64,000 nt of DNA, from contig MU004181.1 of the NCBI GenBank assembly GCA_010093605.1, forward strand, positions 310,001 through 374,000, given 5' to 3'. Both the position numbers and the translations under genes were made by a program. Of the stretch, positions 2,131 to 63,928 are shown piece after piece (position 1 is the first letter of the stretch; each line of letters starts with the position of its first letter). The DNA is from Lophium mytilinum (lineage: Eukaryota). The notes beneath the pieces were generated by a model. That model saw only the letters and a program-made list of their open reading frames with translations, did not search any database and was not told the DNA's origin.

Positions 2131-2211
2131 GGTTGAGTGGCGCAGTGGGAGCGCACCCGTCGCTTACTGGGTTGCGACGGGAGGTTGCGGGTTCGATTCC
2201 CGTCTCAGCTC
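2131..2211 (+). tRNA. tRNA-like element (aberrant anticodon arm; probable Pol III promoter/leader, not a decoding tRNA)
   Basis: Acceptor stem GGTTGAG/CTCAGCT. D arm GCGC-AGTGGGA-GCGC with A box TGGCGCAGTGG. T arm GCGGG-TTCGATT-CCCGT with B box GGTTCGATTCC. Anticodon arm is an 8-bp stem CCCGTCGC/GCGACGGG with a 10-nt loop and no U33. TATATA lies about 30-35 nt upstream. Confidence 0.8.
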
Positions 2212-4840: not shown

Positions 4841-4943
4841 GCCTTCGGGCATTTGAGTCGTATTGAAACCAGCCGGAGAAGATTAGCATGGCCCCTGCAC
4901 TAAGGATGACACGCCCTATCAAAGAGGTTGCTTCAAATTTTTT
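4841..4943 (+). ncRNA. U6: U6 spliceosomal snRNA variant (ACAGAGA box replaced by CCGGAGA)
   Basis: 5' stem-loop GCCTTCGGGC. Core GAGAAGATTAGCATGGCCCCTGCACTAAGGATGACACGC matches fungal U6. AAAGAG helix II segment and oligo-T end (4938-4946) present. Confidence 0.9.
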
Positions 4944-41996: not shown

Positions 41997-42037
41997 CCTC
42001 TCTCCTCCGTCGTCTACTTCACTTCCTCTTCACCTGT

Positions 42038-43335
42038 GGCTCTGCGTATGGAGGGCATGCCAGACCGCGCACCCACCTTGGAAGACGGAAGCTTGTGTCC
42101 GGAGGCGCACAAAATGAAGCAAGAGACGGACCAGGCAGTGAGTAGGTCCAGCGGGCACTTCAACCTCAGCCTTCTCTCTCGTCTCATGTCTGGCTCGGTT
42201 CTGGCTACGTCAATTGCTTCTTATCACCACCTGGCCACTTGCTGAAAGACCGTTTCGTCACCCGGTAGAAGCAAGAGACAGATCTTGTGGTGGGCTGTGG
42301 GCTTGTGTGCTCCGCGATTCCGACGAGTTCAGTTCCCGACTCATGTTCGGAGACCTCACCTAGGCGCAAAAGATCTCGTGGTCCCCCGTCTTCTGCAACG
42401 TCTAGCTCGCCCAACATACGTCGGAAGCCGTCGAACAAAACGGCGGACGAGACGACGGATTTGGCGTGGGCAACGCATGATGAAAGCTTGTCTCCGGAGG
42501 CGCACAAAATAAAGCAAGCCGTCTGCTCCTCAATCATTTGAGCTCAGTTCCAGACTCGTCCTCGGAGTCCTCCCGAAGTTGCAAGAGGAAGCCGTCAACT
42601 GCGATGACGGGAGAGACGATGGATTTCGCTTGGGCTTGTCACACCACAAACGTACAACAGCAAGCTTGTGCTCCGCGAATCCTACGAGTTCAGTTCCCGA
42701 CTCCTTTTCCGAGTCTTCTCGTAGTCGCAAGAGGAAGCCGTCAACTGCGATGAAAGAAGAGACCACGGATTTCGGGTGGGCAACGCATGAGGGAGGCTTG
42801 TTTCCGGCGGCGCACAGACTGAAGCACGAGACGGACTCGGCGGTGCACGCCATGGGACCGCAGATGGGGCCTCAGTTTTCCTAAGACTTTAGGGTCCCGA
42901 AGAGTCCGGATCTTCTGCTGCCGTAGGAACAAACCATCACGCCCTCGAAGTTGCAGCAGAACCTTGTCACCGGCAACGCATGAAGTAAAGCAATGGACAG
43001 ACCAAGCGGCGGACGCCATAGGAACGCGAGATGACCTCTCAATTCCCAGACGTCAGTTTGTCGAACAGCCCAGACCCTCTGCTGCCGCAGGAGCAGACTG
43101 TGACACCCTCGACCGCGATGACGGGAGGGATGATGGGCTTCGGGTGGGCTTGTCACGCCGGAAACGCGGATGGCCTCTCAACTCCCAGACATCAGTGTCC
43201 CGAATAGCCCGATTCTCCGTTGGCGCAGGAGCAGACCAGCACGTCCTCGAAGTTGCAGCAGATGTTTGGGATGAGGAACCAAGTGCCGAACTTTGTGGCT
43301 CTGCGTATGGAGGGCATGCCAAACCGCGCATCCAC
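42038..43335. repeat. patchwork of short internal duplications
   Basis: GGCTCTGCGTATGGAGGGCATGCCA near 42038 and 43297. GCTTGT-TCCGG-GGCGCACA near 42091, 42486 and 42796. TGCTCCGCGA-TCC-ACGAGTTCAGTTCCCGACTC near 42308 and 42669. Confidence 0.8.
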
Positions 43336-45344
43336 TATGTGCGAACCTGGTATCTCAACATCAGGGCCTAGTTGTTTTGCCGCTTTTGGGATAGCCTCGC
43401 CGCTGCAAACCCTTTCGACAACCTTTCGCGTTTGCTTCTTCACCTTCGTCCAACCTGCGACCACCACTTCACTTCTAGCTCCTCACAAGCTCGCAGCCGA
43501 GTGAAAGACTACCGTTTCTGGCTCCTGAACAACTTTCGCGCCTGGAAAAGCCACCCTCATCGATCAGACGCCTGAGAAGAGATTCTTCGCTCCAAGCCCG
43601 AGCCCAGCGATGTCCGATGCTGTCAGACCAAGGCCCGCGGTTGCCAGCACTATCTGGCATTTGTAAAGATTGACAAGCTACCCAGAGAACATAAGGTTGA
43701 ACTTCAATCGACGGGTCCACCCCATCGACCATAGCGCCTAGATGCAGATCTTTTTCTCCGGGGCCCGAGCCCAGCAATGTCCAATGTCCGCTGTTGCCCG
43801 GACTACTTGGCATTTGTAAAGATTGACAAGCTAGCCAGCGAAGAAAGGTTGAGCTCCATGTTCCGGGAGAAGCAAGGTTGAGCTTCATGTTCCGTTGCGG
43901 TCGGGACTCCATGGCATGTCGACAAGCTATCGGCGAACGAAAGGATGGCCTGCGGTCGACTTGCCCACCCCATCGACCATAGCACCTAGATACAAATTCT
44001 CGAGTCTCGGCTCGAGTTAGAACGTCTGCTGTTGTCAGGACTACCTGGCATTTGTCAAGATTGATAAGCTACCCGGGGAACGCAAGGTTGAGCTTCAAGG
44101 TCCGCTGCGGTGTGGACTACCTGCATTTGTCAAGATTGATGAGCTGGCCGGCAAACGAAAGGTTGAATTGCAATCCAGTGTCGCTTCTGTCAAGACTACA
44201 CGGCATTTGTCAAGATGGATGCTCTATTCGGCGAACGAAAGGTCGAATTGCAATCCGCCAGCCCGCCCTCTAGCATCGACCCATCCGCTGAACCAACCTC
44301 TTCATGCAGTCACCAGAAGCTCCAATGCTTCCAGCTTCGAGTTCAATGCAGAACATGAACACTACCGCGAGATCGAATCCAATCGGGGCTTCGATCCCGG
44401 CTCCTCTGAAGCTTGAGCCTCGCAATCCGCATATGAACTACGATGCTTCAATTCCAGACCCTAGTGCATACTTCGACCAACGCCGCTGAAGAAGCACCCA
44501 CGATCCGCGATCGCCATTTCTGGCTCCTTTACAGCCTCGCGCCCCACGGCACTAGGCTGGCATCCCGGGAGTGTTTGCACCTCGAGATTGCCGTCGCGGA
44601 CAGTCACCCATCGTCTGGTATGTCAAACATGTGTTTTCGCTTGGTTCCGTTTACTGACGAATGTCATGCAGGGGTATCAATGAGGGCAGGCAGTGTGCAG
44701 GCGACGTGGACTTTTTCCTTAGCGGAGTAGGCAGCATGCTTCCGGTTACTGGAGGCATCGTGAAGAGTGCTCCTTATGTTGCTTTTTCTGGCGAGAATTA
44801 GGTAGTTACTCATGGTGGAAATGGTGACGGTAGTACCGGAGAGCGCGGTTTTTAATGGTGGTTTTCAATGGCGGTTTTCCGAACAACCAGTATTTAGTTC
44901 AGCATAAGTAACTGCAGAGCGTGATATTCAGGCAGGTCTGGTGGCGCCAGGCGTCGGAGGGCTTTGGATCGCGTGCAGAAGTTTCGTAGATATGAACAAA
45001 ACCCAGTCTCACCAGGCGCTCACCGTGAGCAAGGCCAATCGCATGCGGAGGTGCTGAAAATTGATGGATGTTGGCCGCAAACGCAACCCTCCTCGGCCGA
45101 CTCTCCCCCGCCGACTCTCCCCCAAACAACAACCCTCCGCAACAGGTACTACTGCAAACAACTCTAGATCCGCTAGCAGTCTAGCTAACCGTGCGCGCGC
45201 TTTAGACAAACCGTAACCCAGCGTCAAGCAGCTCGCGCACCATCACTCCTCAAAGCACCCGTTGCCGCAACCGCCTCCCGCCGCCGCAACCGCCTCCCGC
45301 CTCCCGCCTCTCGCCTCCCACGCACCCAACACCCACCTCCTGCA

Positions 45345-45480
45345 ATGGCCTCCGCCCGCGACACGATCTACGAGCTCCGCGACAAGGCCATCACCTTCGC
45401 CAGAGACCATCGCAAGTACATCCTCCTCAGCCTCGTCGTCGCCATCGGCCTCTCGTTCGTCATCGTGCTCGTCGTCTCTC
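45345..45480 (+). CDS. first exon of a hypothetical protein with an N-terminal transmembrane segment
   Basis: C-rich leader, ATG 45345, YILLSLVVAIGLSFVIVLVV, GTAAGT donor at 45481; downstream exons unresolved. Confidence 0.45.
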
Positions 45481-48400
45481 GTAAGTGCCACCCCGCGCCT
45501 TGAAACCGCGCGCAATCCTACATCATGAGTCTGGGCACACGGAATCAGCACTGCTTGGCTGGAGTCCTGCAGACTGAGCGCCGCTGTAAAGGGGAGCCTA
45601 GCTGCCGCGCAGCCGGTCGGTCAAGAGGGGGTCTGATCTTCGCTGCTTGGGCCTCGACATCGGCCGCGAATTCGAGGGACTCCAAGAAGTGGCGGACGAG
45701 TGTGCACAGACTATGAGCTGTCGTTATGATATCAGTGCTAACGACGCGCAGGCCGCTAGACCTCGCTGCGCTCCTTCGGCGTTGGACCTCTCCAAGCGAC
45801 GCACCCGCGCCAGGAGGACCTGTGCCAGTCTTCGCCGAACATGATGTTGGAGCTGCGCTCAGCGAGACGTCCCGCACCAGGAGAAACCTTCCTGGCATCA
45901 CCGAAGACGGTGTTGGATCTGCCCGGAGTGACACCGCGCATGACAGACGTTGATCCGGACGACCTTCCTTGGCGGGAGAAGAACGAATCGCCAACCTCGT
46001 GCCTGCAGAAGTCTATCGAAGTTCCCAGTGCATTTCTCGACCGTGAGGATCCTACGTACGCCAAAGCACGGCAAGACAATGGCGCACCCGCGTCAGAAGG
46101 ACCTGTGTCAGTCATTGCGAAAGACGCCGTTGGAGATGCGCTCAGCGACACGTCCGGCACCAGGACCAACGTCGGCACGGCCGGTCGAGGTGCATTCGTG
46201 TGAATTGTCGCGCGATCATCGGGAAGACAATAACATGCCATCTGTGAAGATGGTTGATATTGGCCGGAAAAGAGTGCGGGGAAAGTCGTGCTTAAGGGGA
46301 AGTGTTGTGCTGGGCTGCGCTCAGCGACATGTCCCGGGTCGAGCTGCTTTCGCCGGACAGACTAGGTGACTACGAGGAAGACAACAACATGCCATTCGTG
46401 AAAATGGTTGATGTTGGCCGGAAAGGAGGGCGGGGAAAGTCGTGCTTGAGGGGGAGATTCATGCTCATCGGGGAAAGTCGTGCTTAAGGGTACGATCCAC
46501 CAAAACCTTCGTCTTCGACTTTGCTAACGTACCATGCCTGCAGACTGGGTTTGTTCGGATGTGGAACATGGCGCAAGAGCTGCGGAGACTTTAGGATTCC
46601 CTTATTCGAAAAGCTTCCCTGTCGCTCACGTTTTGTGCGTGTTGATTTGTTTGCTTGACTTTGCTTGGTTGCTGTGCTTCATGATGTCTCCGTCTCGTTC
46701 TTTTCACATCTTCCTTGCTTACGACCATTGCCCGAAAAGCGTCTCTCCTTGGTACAGTACCGAGACGTAATTCTGGGCACCCGACATAGCACTCCGCCGG
46801 TTCCAATCTTGATCACGCGATGCCACCGTCATTAGTGGCCCGGCCAGCAAGTCGTCGGCAGGTCAAAGGGTTGCCTGTGCAACACTGCATCGAGCTTTAC
46901 GTCGTCTTCGGAGTTACATCGTCTTCGGAGAATCAAAAGCCATAAGCGTACCTGAAGCGGCCCCAGAAACTAAAACCCCCCATGACAACCAAGGTCGCGG
47001 AGCACAACGACAAGAAGGGTATGAAGAATGCCGAGAGGTAAGCGTCTCCCCACAGGAAGAGCAATGTAAGACGAGGAGATGCTGATACCAAAATACTCCA
47101 CCGGGGCCAGGAACGATCGCCCTCGAGAACCTACCACCTCCGTTACCAACCTCCCACCTTGCAACCTGACCGAGCCCCATCCTCATCCCCACAAGGCCAT
47201 GCCTCTGCCTGCCCAGCCGCGACACATCTAACCACCCCGCATCATACCCGCGAAGAAAGCGCGAAATCGGTGTACTTCGAATGCGAGATGGAGAATAACC
47301 ATGTGGAAGATTAGCGACGAGAGAACAACGGGCAACCTACATGCGAGAGTGGGGCCCATTCAAAGAGTGAGCAGAGTCATCGAGGCGGGGACGGAGACGT
47401 GGTTGGACAAATGGATTGCGAACATGAAGGATATACATACCTTGGTAACCTCTCCCCTCCTGGTACAGACTTCGACAAAAGCCGATAGTTAACAGATTGC
47501 AGGTGGATATGAAAAAAGGACTTGAGCGTTGAAAGCAGAGCGACGCAAAAATACCTGCTGCAAAAGAAAGGCGAAGTTCGGATAAAACCAAGTTGGAACG
47601 CTCAGATTGCACGAAATGACTTGACAGCTTGACGTAGTTGATCATCTGTGAGTATGACTGGGAGACAAGGAGACGCGCAGAAGGACTGACTGGTGGAAGG
47701 AATATGACGATACGAAAGCTGAGTGGAAATCATGGTTACCTATACGGCTGAACAAAGTACTGATTGAGTTTGCAGGAGCTCGCATGAAAGAGGGCCTCAA
47801 CAGCAGGTATTCGAAGAACGAGACTAGGATGAAGCCAATGAGGAGATCAGTACGAGACACCTACCTTGACAAGATGAAGCGAGGTCGAGCCGGGGATGAA
47901 ACCCATGAGATGATCAGTAAAAGATGCCTACATTCACAAGATGAGACGAGAACGAGACTGGGATGAACCCGATGAGAAGATCATTACGAGACACCCACCT
48001 TTACAAGATGAAGCGAGATCGAGGCTGGGATAACCCCGATGAGGAGTTGAGTCCGACAGTTGAGTAAGGGACACCCACCTTTCTCAGATCAGAATGGTAT
48101 GCGACAGGCTGACCCCCAAGCAGAAGTTTTTACCTCAAGCATCGCAGCGTTGACACATGGACTGACGTGCAATTCCAAAAGATCATGAGAGGCGCGAAAC
48201 CAGACGAAGAAACGACCTACTAGTACGCATCCCACCCATCAGCCAGAGGCGAGAAAAGAACGCGATCAAACGAAACATCGCCAGAGGATTGGATACTCAT
48301 TGAGCCAGAATGAAGCTGATAGAAACCTACGATCGGGAGAAATGCGACGACCTGAAAGATAAGTAAGACCGGAGAAAGGTACCTGTACATGAGCTGTTAT

Positions 48401-48699
48401 GCTTTGCAGATCCAAAGCGGCGCCGCTAGCATCGTAGAAAAGGTTTCCGCGCATCAAACCTATCCATTCCCACCTGTAGATCAAGAGAGCCATTGACGAC
48501 CACGCCAGAGTTTCGTGAATGACGAGAACGAAAGTTGAGCAAGGACGGAGAGACCTACATTCATACTTGCTGACCTGGCTTGCAGGCCAAACCATCGCCA
48601 ACAAAGTCGCGGAACGAGGGCCTTCGAGCATCAAACTGCTCATTTCCGGAACCCCACTCACCCACTCACCCACTATCGAGGTAGTGGACACATAGACGA

Positions 48700-48862
48700 T
48701 GACGCAAGAGGATCGAGAGCGACGAAAACGACGAGAACGAGGAGGACGGTGAGGACGAAGAAGAAGACGAAAATAACGAAGAGAACGAAAACGACGAAGA
48801 GGACTAAAATGACGAGAACGACGAGGGTGACGAGAACGACGAGGGTGACGAGAACGACGAAA
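48700..48862. repeat. low-complexity GACGA/GAACGA tract with an 18-bp unit repeated about 3 times
   Basis: TGACGAGAACGACGAGGG repeated at 48810-48860. Confidence 0.85.
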
Positions 48863-49499
48863 AAGAAAGCTGAGTAAAAGCAGAGAGACCTCCATGGGTA
48901 TTTACTGATAAGGCTTGCAGGCCCAAAGAAAAAAGGACAAAGACAATGCGAGAGGAAAGAAAATCTAGACCCTGGCCTTCTCACCTTCTTCGGGCCCAAG
49001 GATGAAAAGAAAGACGCTGAGCTCACAAGAGTATCGCAAAAGGAAATTCGAAAGCTGAGTGAGAAGTGCAGGCATTTACCGGATCCATCCACTGACTGAG
49101 ATTTCAGATTCATGAGAACATCGCAGACCGAAGAACACGAGCAGAGATCACTAGCGACTTACATGCGCGACTTGCCTACCGATCGATCGTAGACGGAAAG
49201 CATCACGCGAAAGGAGGTTTCGGATTTGAAGATTGAAAGCTGAGTGGGAAGCTCGAAATCTTACCGAGATCCATCGCTGACTTCACAGTGTAGACTGATG
49301 TGGGAGCTGCTTTAATTTGATTTGAAAGAGCTTATGAGATTGAAGCGGAATTGGATATGGGAACACCTACATTGAGGTAAACTCAAATTGCCAGAAGCTG
49401 AAAAAGAAACGATGATGCTTGGATTTTGCCAAAATCATGCTGATGTCTTCGAAGTACGTTGAGCAGCAAAGACCTACCGCCGTGAGAAAAAATGGGCTG

Positions 49500-49740
49500 A
49501 CTGAAAGCAGGACGCAAAGAGCAGGACCCCTATCGGATACCTTGGTAGCGACGAAGAAAGCAACTGCCGCATGGAATTGACAAGTTGAGAGCAGGACGCA
49601 AAGAGCAGGACCCATACCAGATATCTCGAAAGCGACGTGGAAAGCGACTGCAAGCTGAAACCGACTGATTGGGAGCAGGACGTAAAGAGCAGCACACCTA
49701 CGGGATATCTTGAAATCGACGAAGAAAGCGACTGAAAGTT
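49500..49740. repeat. about 84-bp degenerate tandem repeat x3
   Basis: GCAGGACGYAAAGAGCAG near 49507, 49591 and 49675. Confidence 0.8.
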
Positions 49741-50329
49741 TTGGAACCAAACGACAAAGAAGTCTTTGAGATGGTTTACCGTGAGCAAGAAATGGATATG
49801 GTAGAGACTAACTGGAAAGCAGAAGCGCCTACCTTGGGGAGCAGAAAGCAGATATCGAGAGGACTCGGAGATTCAAGAAGCAAGACACAGAAAGTGAGTG
49901 TAGAGTCGAGATCACCCACCTCCGAGGATCATGAAAAGGAAGCTGGTATATCCAACACAGAAGACCCACCGGGAGACACATAAGACCTACCTGAAGAAGG
50001 TAACGCGGGCCCTGAGTCAAAGGACGAGGGAAAGAAAGAGAGGGAAGTCGAACGATTTACGAATGAAGCTGAGTAGCACGAACCGCACTTACCGTTGCAA
50101 GGAAACTGACGAGCAAGAATGATGACAGCGACAGACCGCGAACTGATACGGAGATCAAATCTTCAGAGAAATATTAAGCAACCGCGGGCAAGGAATGAAA
50201 GGATGGCACTTACCGCACTCACCATTGCAACGATATCGACGAGAAGAGACGACGTTGAAGAAAGACTGCGAGCTGAGTACGGAAATCAAGCCTTTCAAAG
50301 AGGAAAAAGCCACCTCGGGTAAAGATCTG

Positions 50330-51490
50330 AAGGGAACTTGTACCAAAGCTTGACAAGAAAATGAAGCAAAGACGACTGACGCTGGCATAGCCCTGCACAT
50401 AGGAACTTCGCGCCGATCATCCAAATTCACCTACCTTCGAAGAAATCTGATGAGACGACGACGCATAAAACGAGACTTCGAACGGGATGAGAGTTCTGGA
50501 AGGGTTCAAGAACCTGAAAGCGAGAGAAATGGGTTGCTGACCCTGGGAAACATGAGAGCTGACTCGACATTGCTAGGGACGTAAGAAATCCGCGAAAACT
50601 ACTCACATTTACCTACCTCTCAAGCGGAGTGGTACGAGGTGACGACCTGCAGAAAAAGCCTTTGAACGGGAACAGAGTTTTGGAAGGAATCAGAAAGTTG
50701 ACAGAGAGGGACAAGGTAGGTTGAACCCAAGAGACATATATGAAAGCTGACTTGGCATTGCTATGAACATAGGAAATCACTGCGACTAACTGCCTCTCAC
50801 GGGGATTCGGACGAAACGATGACGCAAAGAACAAGATTTCGAACAAGGCGAAAAGGGTTCATGGACCTGACAGCAAGCGATAAGATGGGTTGAACCCAAG
50901 AGACATATGAGAGCTGACTCGGCATTGCCCAGGACATGGAAAATTCGCGCCGATCACTCAGAATCACCTACCTCTTACGAGAATCCGGACGAGACGATGA
51001 CGCGTGGAACGAAGCTTCGAGCGAGATGAGAGATCTGGAAGGGTGCATGAGCCTGAAAGCGAGAGATGAGTTCCGCCAAACCTGAGCAAATGATGAGGGC
51101 TGATCCGGCACTGTCATGGACATAAGAAAGTCACGCCAACGACCTAGATTCACCTACCTATCAACGATTCAGACGAGAAGATGACGCGTAGAACAGAACT
51201 TCGAAAGACATGGAGAGGCTCGGAGGGTTAATGAACCTGGAAGCGAGAGATGAGTGCCGCCAAACCTGTATAAATGATCAGAGCTCACCCGGCATAGCCA
51301 TGGACGTAGAAAATTCGCACCGACCACCTAGATTCACCTACCTATCAGAAATTTCGGATGAGAAGATGACGGTTTGGAGGAGACTCGGACAGGAGGGATC
51401 TGAAAGGGTTTACAAACCTGGAAGCAAGAGGAAAGCAAGGTTCGCTGAACCTGGGAAGCATATGAGAGCTGACTTGGCATCGCCGTAAGC
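50330..51490. repeat. about 180-190-bp degenerate tandem repeat, about 6 units
   Basis: Recurring TYACCTACC at ~50428, 50610, 50965, 51150 and 51335, plus recurring GAGCTGAC..GGCAT and CCTGRAAGCRAGAG blocks. Confidence 0.75.
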
Positions 51491-54400
51491 ATAGGAGATT
51501 CGAGGCTGGACCACTTACTGTCGCGAGAAACCCGAGGATCGGCGAAGACTTCCAAGATTTGAAAGTTGTATCGAGAACACTTACCTAGGAGCAAAATCGA
51601 GGAGCAGAAAGTAGATGAGCACCAAGCTTGGCTAGATATGAGGAAAGCTGGCTTACCAAAGATAGGATGGGACCTGGCCGGCCGGAGGAGATGAAAGCTG
51701 ACTCGGCATGGCCGCAGACAAAGGAGATCGAAACTTGCTCCGCCTACCTTACGGCGGAGATGCGGGAGCTGAAGAGAGATTGAGAGGTCGGTGGATTTCC
51801 AACTGGTTGCGGAGCAAGACTGCGAGTTGAAAAAGAGAGTGAGCATGCCCGCGTGAGGGTCAGAGATCAAACCGTAAGAGAGAAAAAGAAACTGCTGATA
51901 TGGCATCGCCGGACATAGTGATTGTAGGAACCCGCGAACAGAAACCTACCTTCACCTGAGGAATGGATAAACGACGCAGTGAGATCAAACCTTGGTGAAA
52001 GAAATGGCCTCCGACGCGGCATTGCTGGACACAGGAAACACGAAACGTACTGTTAGTCAATGATATTTGGAGGACACGAGCAGAAGTGGAAAGCACAGAC
52101 GAGAGCCTACCGTTATCGAGAGAAGCATGGGTGGGAAATAAGGAGCATGAATCACAGAGATGAGTGAAATGAGATTCGCCGGGCAACCTGGCCACCGCTG
52201 ACTTGATAGGCATTGCCTTGGATAAAGTGAACCACCCACCTTTGACGGAAGACTAACGAAAGGGCGGTGCCCACGAGACGAAGGGAATCGCAGAGATGAG
52301 TGGAAAGAGATTCGCCGAGTAACATGAAGATCGCTGACTTGATATGTATCGCATCGGACATGGGAGATTCCCTACCTTTCATCGGACATCGACGAAGGAA
52401 CGAGATACTGAAGGGGCTGTGCCCATGAGAAGGAAGAAATCACCCACCGCATTCCAAGAAGCGAGCTGACGTAGACGCAAGCAAGACGAGAACGAGAAGC
52501 ACCACAAGGAGTCCTCACCTTTGTTGAGAAGCTGAATATAGAAGAAGAAAAGAAAACAGAAGATGGAAGTGCTGAGGCTAACGGGATAAGAGAATACTCA
52601 CCGAATGCGACCAGGCCGCACGAACTCGATCCCGATAAAAAGGCGATAAACGATTGCCGTGGACATACGGAATGACTTACCGTCTAGGAAAATCGACGGA
52701 GAAGCGCATGAAGATGTGAAGGAAGCGCTGACGGAGGTGTGCGGACAAGAACGAAAAATGGAAGCAGCGCAGATATGCAAGGGCGAAGCCCAACGAGCAA
52801 GCGAGAACACTCACCGGCTATGAGAAATTGGAGTGACGGTGAAATGGTTGTCAAGGATGGATATCCAACGAGGAATGCCTACCTGCGGGTGGTGTAATGA
52901 GTCGATGCCGAGACGATCGCCTCGATGGAAAAGATAAGACACAGAACTCATACCTGCAGAACGATGAGCTGACTCAATAGGGACGAAAGAAATCGAAGAG
53001 GCAACCGAGACAAACGAGATTGCCTACCAGGTGCGCGTAACATGAGAGATGAGGCTTCGCTGACTGCACGGAACGCATAGATCGCTCACCAACTTCAAAC
53101 TCCTACCTGCTGAGCCGGAAATCAATTGATCAGCGATGACAGTAGCGACAAAGAGAAAAGATGCGAAGGAGATCCCCTACCAGGTGTTCGAAATGGACTG
53201 ATGCGGAGAAGGAAATCCGAGAAACGAGCCTAGATTCCAAGACCTCACCTACTCTTGGAAGAGACTGAGCGACGCCGACGGCAATAACGAAGGCCAAGGA
53301 ATGAGAAAGCTCACCCACCAGGTATGCAGAGATTAAGAAGACGAAGCTTGAGGGAGTGCTCAAATACAGACGTAGAGATTGCACTTGGACTTGGAGAACC
53401 TACCTTTCGACTAATGGGGAGCGACTGAAAAACGACGATGGCAAATGCTAGTGAGTCAAAGGAGACGCCTTACCTGGACATTCGAGATGACTGACTGGGA
53501 AATGAAGGTATCCAACTAACGTGGGGAAAGGACTTCAAACCAAAGATCGATCCTAACTTGGGAGCAAGCACGTGACTTGAGGAATGTGGACTGACAAAGA
53601 CAAGGAAGTAGGAGCGGAGCAAGGGGAGCTTACTGGTGAGGGCTGTCAGACGAGCAGAAAAGGAAGGGAAGTCCAACCCAGATCAAAGACTGCGATCACG
53701 AGATTGACACGTGACATAGTCCAATGCCCAGAAGACCGAGAAATTAGGAGATTCTCACCGTTTCAATAGGGAAGAAGACGCTAAGAACTCGACCGCAATG
53801 ACAAGACAGGGAGGCCTTGCGAGGGCCGACTCAGGAGGACGATAAAGCGCCTACCTTTCCACGCTGAGAAAAATGATAGTAGAACCAACTTGTGTGACCA
53901 CGACGAAGGGGATCATACCTGATTTTGGACGTCTGGAATTGAAGGCAAGCACACGAACGCAATGACAGAGAAGCCGAAAGCGTTGACATTTCCAATGGCT
54001 TGGTGCCAGAGAGACAGACATGACGATTACCTTGCTTAGGAAAGATGCGACGTTCGCGGGACAAATGAGATTCTTACCTTTTTTCCAGAACGATGCGACG
54101 GTGGTATGAGATGAACGAAGCATGGCGCTTATCAGAAAGATCTAGGAAAAGGTCACCTCGTTCGAGACACCTGCGACTGTGGACAGGCGACTCGGGCAAC
54201 ACTCTGCAGACAAAGGAGACACTTGCCGTGTGGAAGAAAAGACTGACTGCAAGAATGATGCGACGACGGTACGAGAAGGACACTAGTGAAGGAAGCCCAT
54301 GATACATGTCAGATGCTTACCATGACCAGGGAAAATGCGAGGGTGATGCATTCGTCTCGAATTAACGACATGAGCCGACGGCAGAGAAAGATGTTAGACG

Positions 54401-57400
54401 CCTACCGTGCTGACGAAAAGATGCCGCACTGATGAACACAACGATGGAGGACGATGTCAAGTAGACGTAGGAGATACCCACCGTGGTCAAAAAGGATGTG
54501 AGTAGTTTGGGAGAGACCATGGGTCAACCCGCATGAGACAAAAGAGACACTTACAGTACCAATTGGCACGGATGAAGAGAGCGACAAGGGACAATGCCCA
54601 GAACACTGATGAGAGACGCTCACCGTTCCGGAAGTATGCAACGTCAAGGACACTGAAGGACGAAGAAAGCTTGGCGGATGCTAGGAGAGAGACTCAGAAG
54701 AAACGGTCACCTGGACTGAATACAGGAAGGGTTACGACGGCAACACAGATGACGGAAGAGACCTATCGTTTCTCGGGAGCACGACGACGAAAAGACTTGA
54801 GGAGACGACTTTTTGCAAAGGAAGACACGATTTGAGAAAATGAGAGCGGAGCGAAGTCAAATGACTCAAGAAATCTGACTAGAGTGGGAGCATACTCGAC
54901 CGAGAAGCAGGCATAAACGAAGGAGTTCGAGAATCGAAAAGACAGGAGGTACTTGACCCAGAAGACGTGATGAAAGAATATCCAACTGATACATACATTG
55001 CTTACCTGAAAGACGAGAGACAAACCACGAGAACGTACCGATGGTGGAGACAACATGAAGCACGCTGAGCTGTGAGACGAGATGAGTATGGCGGGTTAGT
55101 GAAAAGTTGAAGGCGGTGGCAATTGGTGCCATCCGAAAACAGACCCAAGGACAGCAGCTGACTTGCCACAGAACTCCGAGGATCCAAAAAGCCGGATGGG
55201 AACGACACCGAAGACATCGTGCAAGCCTGCGGATAGCCGGGATCATTTCGAAGTCCGTGGGTCCATGGTGAATGAGAGAGGCGCCAACGAAAAGGCCTCG
55301 CCGACGCAGGATCAGACGAGAATGCCGAAAAGGAAAACACATACTCCACCAAGACCTTGGCCATGGATGACCAACGCCCATGTCCGCGACGTGGATGTCG
55401 AAAGCACGGTCGTGCTGATAGGGTCCTTGATGCCAGCGAACGGCCACGGGCCATTCGGAACCACGACTGCCGGCACGCCGCAAGCAACTTGAAACAGCAC
55501 TGGCCAGTGATTATGTATGTCCTCGAAGAGCTTGGAAAGCTGGAAGGAGGGTCGTCGACGGGGTTCGACGCGAAATGAGGACGAGGTTCAAAAGAACAAG
55601 ACTGTCACTCGATCTTGATTAGTACGAGATGGAGAAGATGCAGGAGGAGAGAGCTTACCGAGATCAAAAATCTGTTGGAAGAGTGGACCAAATCGAAGAA
55701 AGTGCTCGAGAGGCCAGCAGATATGCCGTGTAAGTTCGCTGACCTGCGCATGCCGCGACATGAAAGCACGGCCCGCCAGAGGAAGACCGCTTGTTCAAAC
55801 CTTGGGTATCATGATCATCATGTTCCCAGGCTAGGTCAGCAAACCCTGAGAGTTTTCCGAGGCTGCTGGATGTTTCGTTGACGCCCAGCCCGGCACGGCA
55901 GACTAGGCATCCAGATGAAGATCCGGTATCTGAGGGACAGCGTCAAGCACACCCGGCCCGAGGCTCAGACTAGGCATCGTGCTGAGTATCCGCGAAGAAA
56001 GACGTGGTGTTGAGGACGCCCAGCCAGAGGGATCAGACCAGACATCGTACTGAGAAGCACCCGTCAGGGACTTGGTGTTGAGGATGCCCAGCCAGACAAG
56101 ACGACCGACCAGACATCGAGCCCCGGCCCAGCACGTACTGAAGGAGTGTACTTCCACGTCCCCGGGCCGAGGGAAATCATGATCGAAGACGTTACTGAAC
56201 GCACTCGAGTGCTGTCGAGAGTCGATGTCGTGGGGACCGCCAGCTCACGCGAGGCCCTCCAGGAAAGAGTCATACCCGGAATCTTCGAGCGGTCCGCATG
56301 GAAGTCGACCTAACGAAGGGATAAAAGAACTCACCAATACTGCTGCCGTAGTGTGTGGTGTTGAGGATCGTCTCGAGCCTGCCGCTGCTTAGACTCTCAG
56401 GGCTGCCGCAAAGACCGGTGGGTGGGTAAGGAGCGTCATCGAGCTGGTGCCTAATGTCGACGCCGTGACAAAGCTGCAGCTGTTAGACGATGCTTGAAGA
56501 GATGAAGAGGTGATGGGAGTGTCAGGGCAGGCGTTGCTGCCCTGGGGTGGATGGGGCTGAGGTCGTTGCTGCTGCCTCTCCACAGCCAGGACGCCCCTGG
56601 CATCAGGAGACGGTGGCAGCGACGTCCAGACATGGCGAGGAGATGAAGGAAGAAGACTTACTTGTGTTTGAAGCTCTGCCGATGATGGCAGAGGCGTTGA
56701 GGACTCGATGAGGTGGGCTGTCGAGTGAGATGACTCGAGGAAGCCGCCGCCTCCACACCCGCCCCTGAGCCCTCCCGTGGGCCAGACACAGCTGGAAGAC
56801 GGTCATATCGAGCTGCAGATGAGGAAGAAGGTGAAGAAGGAGGTAGGGCGGGTTCGTTGTCGTTGTGAGAGGGGGTGAGGGGAGGATGGGTGAGGTGGTG
56901 TTGAGGTTGGGTTTGAGTTGGGGGCCAGAAATTATTTTGGCTTGGCTAGGAACGAGAGGGGCAGCCCATTGCCTCGCAGCCCGGAATGGTATTCACCCCC
57001 CTAATATTGGCTATCCGGACACCGGTATACCTGGAGCAAGGCCATATCATCCTCTGTATTGAGGTCCGAAGACGCCGGAAGGGGTTGTGGAGGTGAAGGA
57101 GTACCGCCGGGCATCGAGACGAGGGACAGCTGGCATGCCAGGGAGCTTGAGCTTGGGCCGTCTCCGCCTCTCCAGCAGCCTCAACACCACGACCCTGGGC
57201 TCGAGCAGTATTAGAAGGAGCCGCTGGAGCTGCAGCAGACCCTGGGCAAGAGGTATGGGCATCACTAATGGCAAAGGGGCAGCTACCGACGGTATTCGAG
57301 CCAGCAACGCCGGCGGGCAGCAGAGAACAGCGAGCTCGATCCCCCCTCCTCACCTCCCTCGAGTCCCTCGACTCCTCGAGACGGCCTGCTGATACCTATA

Positions 57401-59236
57401 CAACTTCTAGGATGGGCATAATACCTCGTACCTGATCGTAGGGGGTGTGTGCCGTCGTCTGCAGGCTGCTTCGGTGGTTTCACAGCGACTCGGGATCTCC
57501 GCCTCCGCCACGACCCCTTCACCAGCCTAGCCATCTACCTACACTGACAAGATGCCTCAGGGGGAACCCTCACAGCCTTCAGGGAACTACAAAGCTATAC
57601 ACTCGATCTCTCTAGACTATGCGGCCATTTGCAGCACGACCGCCGCAGCAGACCGATACCTAGAGATCCCGAAATCCGCACATCTCTCCCGAACCTACCT
57701 ACTTCGAAACACCCTCCTACTCGAGCCTACAAACCTTCATATCCCCGGGGAAGTTACTGAAGACGGCCTCCATTCGAATTTCACTCCTCAGCGGAAAGTA
57801 ACTCAAAGGGAACGTGCAAAGAGGCACACATAGCACGGCAAGGGTACAAGGAAGGCACAAATTCAGTCACTGCAGGGTTTAAGAGTAGCTTTCGACAGCC
57901 TACACGTAATGAGCATTGCTAGTAGTGAACGGACAAGGGATGTGAGAGCGTTGGTGTGACATCAAGCAACATTTGTGCTGGTTACCTAGGTAGGGGGCTC
58001 AAATTGGCCAATAATTTAACGCTGGGTGATCTTGGGGAGTGTATGAGCTTGTCTTTTAGGAGAAAGGGAAGGTAATTGCGGATACCCGGCAAGGGACAAT
58101 TTTACGGTCAGTCGGGCTTCCAAATCGCGAGGAAAGTAGATCATTAGGTCGCAATTGACTTACGAGGGCGAAGGGTAGGGATACTGACATGGCAGGATGG
58201 AGATTCAGTGGAAATGAGGTCATCATCGAATCACAATGTGGGTCTTGGCGTTGATGTTGCGTTGGGATGAGGGAAGTCGTTGCAGAAATTCGATATCACG
58301 TGAGCCGCTAAGCTGACACACCAAGTTCATCCATCCCCTGTGAATGTCTTCAACGTCAAAGTTTCTGCTCACATTGTCTATGTAATTCAATCAAGCCATG
58401 GTCATCATTTTTGGAATGGGTTCGGTGGTTTGCGCTTGGGAGCGTCATGTCACGTGAGCATCACATTCACCGCCAATCACCAATCTCTCCTCATCACTTT
58501 GTAAAAGGGATTCGATGGCACATCAGATTTCATTTCGAGTGTCAAAAGATCCCTGGGATCATACGACATTCTCGATAATTGGATTGAGATGTCATCGCTG
58601 AGAATAAAGGTCACGTGATTACAGGTTCCAGTTTACGAGGGTGCCTTAACCCATGCTATCGTTTCTATTACTAGCTAGAGCTTCCAGGAGAGCTCTACGT
58701 TCTCCGAGATACGAATTTACCTCGGTATGATTCAATGTACTTTTGGAGCTGTCACGTGTACTGCCAAGAGATTTCGAAGCTCGTGGTAAATTAGGCTGGT
58801 CGAATCCCAATGCCTCATGAAGCTCTAGATTCCATCATCTACGGATATGTGACCGTTGGAAAGTAGCGACGTCAGCTATCCATCGTGGGGCCTCGTATTC
58901 TGCATTTCCATCATAGGGCTCCACTATAGTCCTTAGCTTCATCTGGCCAGAACCTCCTCGATTTATGGGTCGTTCACGATTTCACTCCGAGTTTAGGAGA
59001 TGCTTCAGGCTTTGACTAATTGATTCCATTAATCGCATTCAGCTTGACTAGCTTTCCCTCGGAGAACCTCGACTGCAGAGTATATGAAGATCGTCCCGCC
59101 TTCGTCTCTCCGCACTCCATTTCCCTTGCAATTCTCTCAGACGATCTTTTTCATCTTCCAACGAAGGAATTTCGACACCGCTCAGCTTCTCCATTCCACG
59201 TCGCATCTCCGTTGTCCTTGGCTCTCCACCCCCTAC

Positions 59237-59473
59237 ATGGCCATGAGCCGCCGAAGCCGCGCCAAGACCGTTGCATCGAGAATTGGTGACGTGGCACTCG
59301 CAGCGTTAGAGTATGCAATCGTGGCCTGCTGCATCTGCTGCATAGTCCCCCATTGCATAGTCGAAGAATGGCACAACAATGACCGTATCTACTATTTCGT
59401 GGATGAAGACGGCTACGACCCAAAAGCCAAGCTTGAAAAAGACGCCAGGGTCAGTCACCGCGGACACCAGTGA
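59237..59473 (+). CDS. short ORF, possibly the truncated N-terminus of a DUF7730-like paralog
   Basis: ALEYAIVACCICCIVPHCI resembles the Cys-rich hydrophobic N-termini of the 62421 and 62784 genes. Confidence 0.35.
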   Translation: MAMSRRSRAKTVASRIGDVALAALEYAIVACCICCIVPHCIVEEWHNNDRIYYFVDEDGYDPKAKLEKDARVSHRGHQ

Positions 59474-59499
59474 CCCGGACGCCTATCCCTCTGCCGTTC

Positions 59500-60740
59500 T
59501 CACTCCTGCGACATCCCCCCCGCACTGCTTTCGATACGCCACGTCTTGCCTCCAACCTCTACCGATCCAGCTGATTGATACGGCACCCTGAACCGGAACT
59601 CCGTGAGAGGCGTCGTGAGTTTGCGAACGGGTGCGAGGATATACGGCTCATTTACCGCAAACTTCTCTGCGTCCCAGAAGCCACTCAACGTCAGTTCAAC
59701 GAAAAGAGATCGCAGCCCCTGCATCCCCGCCATCACTCTCCAAACACGGTGCCAATCGCGTTCCGCTTCGGGGTCGTCGTCCTTTGCAACCACTTCCGCC
59801 TCCATGAAGGCGTTGAAGAGCGAGTACTCGAAGTTGAGCGAGCGAATCTGATGGAGCCGTTGCGTCACAAGGAGGAGGGGCAGCTGCATGAGGGGATCGG
59901 CCTGGCGGAGACAGAAGGTGTTGGCGGTGTAGAGAAGGTCGATTGATTCGGTGTATCTGGCATGTAGTGTTAGCAATGGGCATATCAAGTTCCTTGCGGC
60001 GAAATCTATGTTCCCTATCAACTAGCCAAACTTCTGCCAAGGGGGCTGCCCCTAGGCGCAGCCTCCGACTTCCATAGGAGGGCTCAAATAGTGCTGCACC
60101 TATGGACCACGTCCTCGGGTCGATGTCTTACTACTCACATTTGGCGACAGCTCAGCAAGAAGTGCAGCCGATTCAATCCTACGTTCGCCTTCGTCCCGTG
60201 CGCATCTCCGCAAAGCGACCTTTCTTCGGCCACGCACTCACAGCTGTAGAACCATCGAAAATAGGACCCCACCAAACGTATCCCCGAGTCTCCAACAACG
60301 TGCCGAAATATCTCTTGGCGAAGCTCAAGGGGCAGCTTATACAGCAACGACGCCGATGGCTGCAGTTTCGGCTCTCCAATGACAACTGGCGCTGGCCTAT
60401 AGGGTGCAGGGTTTCGAACTCGCTCTTGTCGGTCTTGCGCTTCCTCCTCGATCTTCTGCGCCGTCGGTGTATTCCTTTTCCTGCCGCTTTTGGTGGGCGA
60501 ACCATACCCAAAAAAGCTCAGAAGATAGGCCGTCCACCCTTCTTCTTGCTTTTCTGGTTCAGTGGGTGGTAAAACCGTGCTATACTTCTCCCAATAGGTA
60601 ATGTAGGGGGAATTTGTGACATCTTTCCAGACTGATTTGTCGGGCGGCGAGTACTGAATACGGCCGATGTAGGCGCGCCTTTCTTTTTCATTTAGATCCG
60701 GGTTGTTTCGCAGCCTTGTGACTGCTGGTGTGATCTCCAT
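59500..60740 (-). CDS. DUF7730-like (F-box-like) fungal protein
   Basis: ATG 60740; QPSASLLYKLPLELRQEIF..FLLSCRQ, phase-2 intron 60138-59957, YTESIDLLYTANTF..IRSLNF..W..MAGMQGLRSL. Confidence 0.8.
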
Positions 60741-61472
60741 AGGGGGGGTCGTAAAGTTGGACAAAAGTTGAGATGGGATGGTATTCGTATGCATGCAGGT
60801 GGCAGCCTGGGGCGGAAGTGGCTCAGTGGCGCAGATTGTGGCAGTGCTGCACGTGACCCCACCTAAGAAGCCACCCCCTCTTCCTGAAATTGGATGACGG
60901 ACTTGCTGCACTGACTTGATTGTATTTACAACGCAGTGGGTGTTTTTGTTCCTTAGATAGATGGCTAGCACTAAGCACTCCAATCCCGAGTATGTTATCT
61001 CACGTGACCTTCTCGCCTCGAATGCTACGCCGAACCTTATCCAAAACACCATCATCCATCTCAACATCCACAAGATCGCATCTATCACCGCTCCAAAGGC
61101 GCTCTTCCCAGTGGCGTGTGTTCAGGGATGCGGTGTGCAAGATCGGGCTTTTTACAGACTCGAGGCCAGCTTGCCTCGCGAATGTCTTGAATCAGATCTG
61201 GCGTGTTTCGACTCAACGTCGCATGTTCAGTTTTCATAGCAACGCGAAGAATCTCAGATGACTTCGTCGACACTATTGATCAAGAATGTACTCGTGGTTC
61301 CGATCTAGAGCCTCAGAGATAGGACTTCCGTATAAGCTTTTCATGACAACTCGCAGGACTCCTAACGATGGCGTCACCTATCAAAACTGCATTTTCCAAG
61401 TCCTAAATTCCACTCCATTACTTTAGCAGCCCTTTCGGCGCATTCGAATTGGAGTGCCGGACAAGCTGTTTT

Positions 61473-62421: not shown

Positions 62422-62783
62422 GATGATGATGTGTTGTTGATTGCACAAGCACAGAGTAAAACAGGACGCAAGCGACTTGAAGTAATGCAGTCACGGCCGT
62501 AAAACACCCACCTTCACTATCATGAGAGAAGAATGTGGCGCATACATGTGGCTCTCACGTGACCTCCGCGACAGGCCAAACGCCCAGGCGCTGGGCCACA
62601 TTCGACAGCTTTTAGGAGACGCTTTGTGGATTTGCGGAAGGTCCTCACGTCTCGAATCTCGTACAGAAAGTTGGCGCACCACGCAATGGGAGCCACGTGA
62701 CTGAGCTTTGCCGCTTGCTGTGCCGCAATCTCGATGCCCCTCATCTTTCGTGTCTCTGCATGCCACATCTCCATTTTCAAAAT

Positions 62784-63928
62784 ATGTCAGACCCTTTAAT
62801 TCTCCTGGCCGCAGCCAACAGTCAGAATCGCGAACCACCGAGAACCGTCGGGGGAAAACTCAAGCATGTGCTACAATGCTCGCTTGGCATTTGCGTCTGC
62901 GTGCCCTACATTTGCATAACCTCCTGTTGTGATGTCTGGAATTATAAGATCAGGAAAAGGCCGGACCGGAGAGGTTGGTGTGGCACTAGCAGACTCGGGC
63001 CAGTCCGTAGGCAAAGGTCAAATGAGCAACCACCGACGCGCCGCGAAGCTCGGATCGATATCGAGTTTGCGTGTCAGGAACCCTTCAAATTCGAACCTCC
63101 TCCACCTCCATCATTGTACCGGCCTCATTCACCAAGAGAACGCAAGTTGACTATTATGAGGGCCTCAGACGTGAACGAGCATCACGACGTCAATAGCCAA
63201 AAGGGTTCGATGCTCTTCAGCAAATTGCCTCCAGAACTCCGGCTGCTCATCTACCGATATTCGCTGTGTGGGTGGGTATTCCATCTCGAGGCCTGGAATG
63301 AGGATACGTGTCCTTGTTTACGTGCAGTTCGTTGTACAGCGTCCAATGACCTCCCATCTCGGGCGCATGGATGCTGGAAATACGGATTGCCTGAGCACCC
63401 GCCGCCCATGCCACCACTTTCATTACTATTAAGCTGTAAGAGAATGTAGGTATCTGTATCTTCCTAAAGGTTGTTATGCTAAATACAGATAGCTATTCTG
63501 AAGCAGTTGATAGTCTCTACCATAACACCTTCGACTTCCGCGACCCAAAGCAGTTTTTCAAGCTCCCTTTGCTTATCCTCCCGCAACGCTTCCACGCCAT
63601 TCAATCTCTTCAATTCGACTATTGCATGGGTGATGGATTTGATGGTCAATGGGACTGGCCTTTCAATCTCTGGGACCTCGTCGCATCTATGAAAGGCCTT
63701 GAGCAGCTCAGAGTCCGATATCTGGTGGGAAAAGACCATCAGAGTTATTGGTTTCGCTTTCAGGATCATTATTTGCAGCCGCTGATCGAGGCGGAAATTG
63801 CAGCGGATGTGGAGATCATCCTGCCTTTCGCGGCGTGTGAGAGAGCTAGGATTGGGAAATCGAACTTCAGAATCACCATACCAGAGATGGATGGTTACCG
63901 GATGGTCGAAGCTGAAAGAGACGTATGA
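62784..63928 (+). CDS. DUF7730-like (F-box-like) fungal protein
   Basis: ATG 62784; QKGSMLFSKLPPELRLLIYRYSL..LLLSCKR, intron 63446-63492, YSEAVDSLYHNTF..MKGLEQL. Confidence 0.85.

Follow-up and report, generated by a model that had tools for sequence, protein, structure and literature searches.

A stretch of about 8 kb in the genome of the ascomycete Lophium mytilinum (Dothideomycetes, order Mytilinidiales) carries on one strand a dense array of sequences that resemble 5′ splice sites, most of which are retained in assembled RNA contigs. The array lies at 47300-55100 of the window, the 64-kb stretch of contig MU004181.1 (positions 310,001 to 374,000) that we analysed and to which all coordinates below refer. 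Its minus strand is the RNA-like strand, and the dominant motif of that strand is GGTRRG, present in 54 copies. We tentatively favor, with somewhat less than even confidence, the reading that the locus produces a lineage-specific long non-coding RNA in which motifs complementary to U1 engage the spliceosome unproductively. A spliceosome-engaging non-coding RNA is compatible with all of the results, which come from one species and this one window.

The minus strand of the array contains 2654 T, 2208 C, 1630 G and 1309 A and is thus 62% C+T. On the plus strand the AT skew was +0.30 to +0.39 in each 1-kb bin from 47001 to 55000, in agreement with the strong purine skew of that strand described in an earlier note made from the sequence alone. 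The skew was still +0.27 in 55001-56000 and extends to about 55.5 kb, and the 1-kb bins outside 47-56 kb had absolute AT skews of at most 0.22. When the 64 kb were divided into 500-nucleotide (nt) bins, the array was the sole sustained pyrimidine-rich tract. The RNA is predicted to fold weakly (-30.2 kcal/mol, versus -35.9 in windows of 150 nt matched for GC, P 1e-10) and AATAAA does not occur in the array.

Against the 54 GGTRRG motifs of the minus strand stand four on the plus strand of the same region, 0-8 per strand in the other 2-kb bins of the window and a mean of 3.3 (standard deviation 1.8, maximum 8) in 300 dinucleotide-preserving shuffles. Hence, the dozens of minus-strand donors seen in the earlier note are present far above chance, and base composition does not explain their density. 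By individual word, the minus strand contains GGTAGG 21 times, GGTGAG 13 times, and GGTAAG and GGTGGG 10 times each, where 0.6-1.0 of each would be expected. The enrichment is specific for the order of the letters, as permutations of the same letters had a median count of 1. Under a first-order Markov background each of the 12 6-mers with the greatest excess is a sub-word of AAG|GTRRGT; an order-3 background was uninformative because it absorbs the 4-mers of the motif itself, and order 1 was used for 6-mer enrichment for this reason.

Alignment of the 54 motifs gave G at -1, preceded by an A-rich context (-4 to -2), followed downstream by T or C at +6 and a leaning to G at +7, and from -30 to +90 no other position exceeded 0.2 bit. 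The degeneracy of the motif, with R at +3 and +4, G at -1 and +5 and A at -2, would be that permitted by pairing with the 5′ end of U1 small nuclear RNA (snRNA), a purine at +3 and +4 providing a Watson-Crick or wobble partner. Sites with at least eight of nine positions able to pair with U1 numbered 27 on the minus strand of the region (3.46 per kb) and three on its plus strand, versus 0.43 per kb per strand in the rest of the window. The motifs are also spaced in a preferred manner: 18 of the 53 gaps between them measure 60-95 nt, whereas 7.6 would be expected at random (P 0.0002), those of 30-60 nt are under-represented and the largest gap is no more than 382 nt. The motifs differ from the local working donors at position +4, which is G in 31 of the 54; in the five RNA-supported introns outside the array +4 was A in four and G in none. 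As G at +4 is rare in working donors, many of the motifs may bind U1 and yet be poor substrates for the later steps of splicing.

The RNA evidence came from the assembled contigs of one public run (X1), which were aligned to 42000-61000. The kind of run was guessed and its RNA nature is borne out solely by splice joints; it contains 96% of the region's sampled words. Such contigs lose rare isoforms and show neither the strand nor the ends of a transcript, nor give a reliable measure of its level. Ten joints were found, eight in the locus and two in neighboring genes, all of which read CT..AC on the plus strand and thus GT..AG on the minus strand. Hence, spliced RNA is present in X1, and transcription of the locus is from its minus strand. 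The transcript is about 9-10 kb long and extends from about 56.9 kb to 46.4 kb or beyond, the latter being the point where contig record 2 ends at a repeat, as contigs leave the ends of an RNA undefined. The CT-rich tract that the earlier note called promoter-like is indeed present at about 56.81-56.91 kb, at the upstream end so deduced, and from its sequence could be a core promoter or a leader. At the other end, 45804-46437 has the highest contig depth of the aligned stretch (145), loose ends at 46085, 46371 and 46423, and local duplications of 283 and 154 nt; the site obscures where the long RNA ends on its 3′ side and has the appearance of an expressed repeated element of which the genome contains further copies.

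The joints define two introns upstream of the array, with a further, alternative intron inside the second, and five introns within the array (Table 1). The 1265-nt upstream intron is very long for a filamentous ascomycete and holds 68-nt tandem repeats (55880-56096). Outside the joints the contigs are colinear with the genome over 46394-47926, 47998-48839, 48831-51268, 51517-52950 and 53918-55069. Only two of the 54 motifs were used as donors (53027 and 47998) and one as an acceptor, the AG in GGTAG|G at 53854, which ends the 53918-53851 intron. Retained in contigs were 49 motifs (40 in the pieces just listed and nine in a piece deduced from record length): 34 in contigs that are spliced elsewhere (25 in listed pieces and the nine in the deduced piece) and 15 in a contig having no joint. 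The remaining two, within 51269-51516, fall inside the 152-nt intron found in a minor isoform. Consensus-like 5′ splice-site motifs thus stay in the processed transcript. The transcript of dozens of introns and micro-exons that the earlier note put forward was not seen, the contigs giving one 33-nt micro-exon and two motifs used as donors. The two introns it gave as examples, 53473-53425 and 50971-50914, have the sequences described and no joint in the RNA contigs.

Table 1 Features of the array and of the transcript that contains it (window coordinates)
Feature	Coordinates	Strand	Basis and remarks
Core array, 54 GGTRRG 5′ splice-site-like motifs	47300..55100	-	composition, counts, shuffles, spacing
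Minimum transcript extent	46394..56895	-	X1 contigs; 5′ limit 56895 deduced from the length of contig record 5
CT-rich tract at the deduced 5′ end	56810..56905	-	sequence and length of record 5; candidate core promoter or leader
Intron, 188 nt, GTAAGT..CTAAC..CAG	56474..56661	-	RNA joint
Intron, 1265 nt, GTGAGT..CTAAC..CAG	55070..56334	-	RNA joint
Alternative intron, 57 nt, within the 1265-nt intron	55658-55602	-	RNA joint; lower depth
Intron, 68 nt, donor CAG|GTATGA, acceptor the AG in a GGTAG|G motif	53851..53918	-	RNA joint
Intron, 74 nt, donor of GGTAGG class, acceptor CAG followed at once by GTATGAG	52954..53027	-	RNA joint
Intron, 68 nt, A|GTAAGT..CCCAG, in the 184-nt family	51451..51518	-	minor isoform, depth 5.1, side 28
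Micro-exon, 33 nt, between two neighboring introns	51418..51450	-	sole RNA-supported micro-exon; minor isoform
Intron, 152 nt, CAG|GTTTGT..ACAG	51266..51417	-	RNA joint in 8 repeated letters, side 22
Intron, 71 nt, donor of GGTGGG class, acceptor TGTAG|G, part of the degenerate motif of the following unit	47928..47998	-	RNA joint
P0001, 197-aa "hypothetical protein" of Lophium mytilinum	51161..51906; join(51906..51418, 51265..51161)	-	public gene model
184-nt tandem family, 7 full copies and 1 partial, internal boundaries AG|GT	50250..51767	-	repeat search
67-80-nt tandem family, 4 copies, start GT(R)GG, end AAG or TAG	47815..48098	-	repeat search
84-nt tandem repeat, 3 copies, degenerate motifs CGTAGG, GGTATG, ATAGGG	49502..49753	-	repeat search
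136-nt duplication, 2 copies, 71% identity, motif kept in both	52149..52396	-	repeat search
153-nt repeat, 2 copies	in array		
335-nt repeat, 2 copies	in array		
9-nt microsatellite, 16 copies	48720-48863		acidic D/E/N run if read on +, interrupted by a stop
8-nt unit, 2.8 copies, itself a donor word on the minus strand	48653-48674		beside the 9-nt microsatellite

Retention of 49 motifs, with two more found only in the intron of a minor isoform, together with the atypical G at +4 in 31 of the 54, would also suit a motif with a role outside the spliceosome. It might bind another RNA-binding protein, for which the CU-rich RNA would be a scaffold, or act in the DNA as an element specific for one strand (CCYYACC when read on the plus strand). 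In animals CU-rich RNAs are known that act as sponges for splicing regulators, PNCTR reportedly being one for PTBP1. We consider this explanation very unlikely, as the wider context of the motif follows the donor consensus, from the A-rich positions -4 to -2 through the G at -1 to the T or C at +6, and the spliceosome does use instances of the motif, two as donors and one as an acceptor. The strand bias of 54 to 4 argues further against a DNA site that is read on both strands.

Coupling of the donors to branch sites and acceptors is at chance. The earlier note placed the donors typically 45-65 nt from a TCAG, but TCAG was found at that distance downstream of 14 of the 54 motifs versus 10.6 for random positions (P 0.17) and is itself not enriched in the array (77 versus 66.7 expected). 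Its remark that the putative introns mostly lack a CTRAY branch site near the 3′ end agrees with our counts, in which CTRAY is not enriched (17 versus 20.6 expected). A CTNAY plus YAG at intron distance followed 19 of 75 GTRRG sites versus 23.8% of random positions, and in the strict CTRAY version 4 of 75 versus 5.8%. The minus strand has a second group of over-represented words, (A/C)(G/C)TCAGCT(C/T)TC, to which belong AGTCAG (16 versus 3.3 expected), GTCAGC (17 versus 3.8) and GCTTTC (23 versus 5.6; all first-order Markov). TCAGC is found 16-20 nt upstream of the acceptor in three of the five supported array introns and might be a non-canonical branch region, but coupling of the donors to downstream TCAGC or CTCAT was not significant, the best value being that for TCAGC at +20 to +70 (17 of 54 versus 11.6, P 0.055). 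The donor-like motif and AG|GT are enriched in the array; complete introns are not.

The enrichment of AG|GT is strong. AGGT occurs 77 times versus 27.9 expected, YAGGT 50 times versus 15.8 and YAGGTRRG 10 times versus 0.4, and of about 85 candidate donors 13 are dual sites, YAG|GTR[AGT]G, in which a 3′ splice site directly abuts a 5′ splice site, the sequence arrangement of a zero-length exon. Nine donor-to-dual-site pairs (seven distinct ends) are 66-102 nt apart. These data raise the possibility that one or more long intervening sequences are removed piecewise or recursively in steps of about 70 nt at juxtaposed 3′ and 5′ sites, or in many rare isoforms, and that the unspliced contigs are intermediates. 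The 60-95 nt peak of motif spacing equals the local intron size, two acceptors fall within a GTAG|G word and the 53027-52954 intron is spliced in RNA to a CAG followed directly by GTATGAG, a junction resembling a zero-length exon. Recursive splicing at such exons is described from Drosophila and vertebrates (PMC5126111) and, in two cases, from Schizosaccharomyces pombe (10.1101/226894). However, the contig having the 53027-52954 joint retains the regenerated donor unspliced together with the 1434 nt that follow, so that the second step is not seen in these data, which do not reveal rare or transient forms; no joint spans the array, and the dominant RNA keeps it. Contig depth in the array (7.5-29) is within the 1.7-145 span of the other bins and not below it, although contig depth is a poor measure. 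The known cases, moreover, concern functional genes in which a long intron has one or a few ratchet points. Given also that only the 13 dual sites are available and that coupling to branch sites and acceptors is at chance, we consider piecewise removal of the array unlikely.

The other proposal of the earlier note was a protein gene of dozens of micro-exons that ORF (open reading frame) finders had overlooked. In agreement with that note, no long ORF is present: stop-to-stop ORFs in 45-59 kb reach at most 214 residues (aa), and removal of the seven supported introns left an RNA of 8721 nt having no ORF longer than 211 aa. A search for spliced ORFs by dynamic programming (85 GTR[AGT]G donors, 202 YAG acceptors and introns of 45-110 nt) gave a best ORF of 1805 nt with 12 introns, but this was equalled or beaten in 8 of 40 frequency-matched sets of pseudo-stops. 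None of the 51 ORFs of at least 80 aa in 46-58 kb had a Pfam match (E up to 0.01). The 211-aa ORF (48266-48901) had one weak match among 1.84 billion representatives (E 3.3e-5, in five short stretches). The 203-aa ORF at 51334-51945 had as its sole match among proteins of 111-356 aa the window's own protein, P0001, to which it is 99% identical. In favor of a coding gene are this public 197-aa model within the array and the one RNA-supported 33-nt micro-exon. However, P0001, which shares the 152-nt intron, reads across the RNA-supported 68-nt intron, the removal of which would shift the frame, contains three GGTRRG motifs and has no relatives that we could find. As it reads through a supported intron and lacks relatives, P0001 is most likely a spurious ORF call on a non-coding RNA. 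Coding on the plus strand, where the 9-nt repeat at 48720-48863 would give an acidic run, was rejected owing to in-frame stops, the minus-strand joints and the lack of a Pfam match. No coding signal was found in the locus and, with 49 of the 54 motifs retained, the micro-exon gene is largely refuted; we give it almost no credence. Rfam at gathering scores found no family in the locus, and at E up to 1 gave two sub-threshold archaeal C/D matches only, which does not make the locus a host of small nucleolar or other small RNAs.

The array consists of a patchwork of tandem duplications that are old and local, with units of 67, 84, 136, 153, 184 and 335 nt that are 60-85% identical. Its flanks are tandemly duplicated as well (44028-44253, 45800-46465 and 55880-56096); the first of these comprises three copies of a 75-80-nt unit that are 63-76% identical and adjoins a minus-strand gene having a 49-nt intron at 44836-44788. 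Splicing follows the repeats in places. The 71-nt intron 47998-47928 takes out about one 67-nt unit, and the removal of the 152-nt intron brings together corresponding short segments of two neighboring 184-nt units, although support for the latter is weaker because its joint sits in eight repeated letters.

Given this anatomy, the main competing explanation is that the locus is a transcribed but functionless and decaying duplication array, in which a short seed containing an intron-like unit with AG|GT ends was amplified serially in a gene-poor region rich in orphan ORFs, the motifs were inherited and splicing occurs occasionally without function. We regard this as a real possibility, if a less than probable one. 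Rogers reportedly devised the original tandem-duplication model of intron birth. In that model a segment containing AGGT is duplicated in tandem and gives rise to an intron (PMC3265369, PMC4974935), and it predicts an intron of about one unit, as seen here with 71 versus 67 nt. The array shares with such introns the AG|GT-bounded tandem units and splicing that takes out about one unit or a unit minus a segment (152 versus 184 nt). The cases reported are single duplications in coding genes where splicing restores the frame, whereas here an 8-kb array is non-coding and most of its units are unspliced. The neutral explanation fits the duplicated flanks, the lack of detected relatives and known domains, the decay of the motif in the 84-nt and 335-nt families, and the 184-nt family, in which conservation of the donor columns does not exceed that of the rest.

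Other data fit poorly with neutral decay. When the motifs were masked, the 54 sites formed 45 clusters by flank similarity, 40 of which were singletons, so that recent duplication does not explain the number of motifs. An intact 6-mer amid flanks that have decayed beyond recognition, with nothing conserved beyond -4 to +7, would need either selection or an implausibly large original array. In the pooled duplicate families the motif columns were more alike than the other columns (0.76 versus 0.54, one-sided P 5e-4). Nor would random decay be expected to leave motifs that are evenly spaced, at distances of no more than 382 nt, or a strand composition that is uniform over 8 kb.

Mobile elements and mutation of repeats were considered as sources of the array. 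Repeat-induced point mutation (RIP) was ruled out as the cause of the divergence or the skew by the dinucleotide ratios, TpA/ApT being 0.58 and (CpA+TpG)/(ApC+GpT) 1.15, which are similar to those of the rest of the window. Nor was a transposable element supported: no RIP signature, no Pfam match and no notable terminal repeats were found, the only candidate ends being one weak inverted pair of 32 nt at 72%. The other copies for which the earlier note had proposed to search were not found in the rest of the window, where blastn with the array gave one 31-nt match; nhmmer with a profile of the 184-nt unit detected only the family itself and weak neighbors at 51.7-52.4 kb. A 19-letter IUPAC pattern from the most conserved block of that unit matched 12 metagenome loci, but these were judged to be chance matches, as similarity was confined to the pattern (by nhmmer also) and the loci lacked both strand skew and motif density. 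The introner-like elements of Dothideomycetes (PMC4457414), the same class of fungi, are short, intron-sized, multiplied units with splice signals, in which respects they resemble the array. However, they are reported to form hundreds of near-identical copies that are dispersed in unrelated genes and spliced, whereas the units here are local, tandem, diverged, mostly devoid of branch site and acceptor and mostly unspliced. Judged by the structure and splicing of the units within the window, the locus is not an array of introner-like elements: signal coupling is at chance and two of 54 motifs act as donors.

The mechanism that we propose for a spliceosome-engaging RNA is as follows. The RNA body (47.3-55.5 kb), pyrimidine-rich, A-poor and weakly folding by prediction, grew by repeated local tandem duplication. 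It presents about 54 copies of (A)AG|GTRRG(T), every 75 nt or so or at multiples of this distance, most without a matching branch site or acceptor. Each motif is predicted to pair with the 5′ end of U1 snRNA, and U1 and early spliceosomes may be recruited at many sites where splicing fails or is slow. By analogy with animal RNAs, the RNA might then be held in the nucleus or on chromatin, or be marked for decay; a possible further role would be the buffering of free U1. A few units are complete and undergo splicing, some at juxtaposed AG|GT sites. A stronger version, that of a dedicated spliceosome-landing RNA in which some 50 U1-complementary motifs on 8 kb of unstructured, CU-rich RNA form a U1 sponge, a hub for splicing factors or a feeder of RNA interference, and which would include the array as a living example of duplication-born introns and zero-length exons, we regard as doubtful.

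Several observations weigh against our interpretation. The unspliced stretches could include pre-mRNA or contaminating DNA, because contig cover is present in all 30 depth bins of the aligned stretch, and the unspliced contigs themselves give no strand. Low-level splicing at many of the motifs is possible, as contigs from one run lose rare isoforms. The atypical G at +4 means that the motif could serve some other RNA-binding factor. Finally, the pooled conservation test draws no motif columns from the two families in which the motif has decayed, and in the seven copies of the 184-nt family the first eight columns, which hold the donor, are no better conserved than the whole unit.

Two known systems are close to the mechanism proposed. 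In animal RNAs 5′ splice-site motifs are reported to cause nuclear or chromatin retention (PMC4380460, 10.1101/310433, PMC9074902). Those RNAs and the one described here have in common consensus-like motifs kept in a processed non-coding RNA without a productive partner and, by analogy, U1 small nuclear ribonucleoprotein as the predicted effector. They differ in that the animal RNAs have one or a few motifs each, as compared with 54 in 7.8 kb, at quasi-regular spacing on an extremely CU-rich backbone, in a filamentous fungus and known from sequence and contigs. In Cryptococcus, stalled spliceosomes reportedly trigger production of small interfering RNAs through SCANR, the targets being transposon mRNAs. 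The likeness would lie in transcripts with suboptimal splice signals that hold spliceosomes, as proposed here; the differences are the phylum and that no transposon features (terminal repeats, Pfam matches or RIP) were found in our locus.

Elsewhere in the window, a full-length U6 spliceosomal RNA gene is on the plus strand at 4841-4942 (Rfam RF00026, 62.9 bits), and its proximity to the array, 43 kb away, is probably coincidence. An 81-nt transfer RNA (tRNA) gene at 2131-2211 (plus strand, Rfam 48.4 bits) was called tRNA-Ser by ARAGORN, with anticodon ACT at position 36; as this anticodon is unusual for serine, the gene may have an intron or may have been parsed wrongly. Among the window's 13 largest ORFs the only Pfam matches were to DUF7730, in two divergently placed ORFs at 60135-61121 (minus strand, E 8.3e-5, below the curated cut-off) and 62616-63449 (plus strand, E 2.8e-8). 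These DUF7730 neighbors of the array point to Ascomycota, in agreement with the placement of the organism in the Dothideomycetes, and the window is otherwise rich in orphan ORFs.

If the array is merely decaying junk its interest is modest, although two points are independent of function. The public 197-aa "hypothetical protein" is probably spurious and serves as a warning for annotation, and the use of AG|GT at the borders of tandem duplications for splicing bears on the tandem-duplication model of intron gain. Word searches of the open-access literature found no description of a fungal RNA having an array of 5′ splice-site motifs, which does not prove that none exists. Should the motifs have a function, the RNA would be the first array-type decoy RNA for U1 and 5′ splice-site recognition in a fungus. 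It would then provide a system in which to study the effects of unproductive 5′ splice-site recognition (retention, decay and small-RNA production), to ask whether free U1 is buffered and to learn how intron-definition spliceosomes choose a donor among dozens that are equally spaced.

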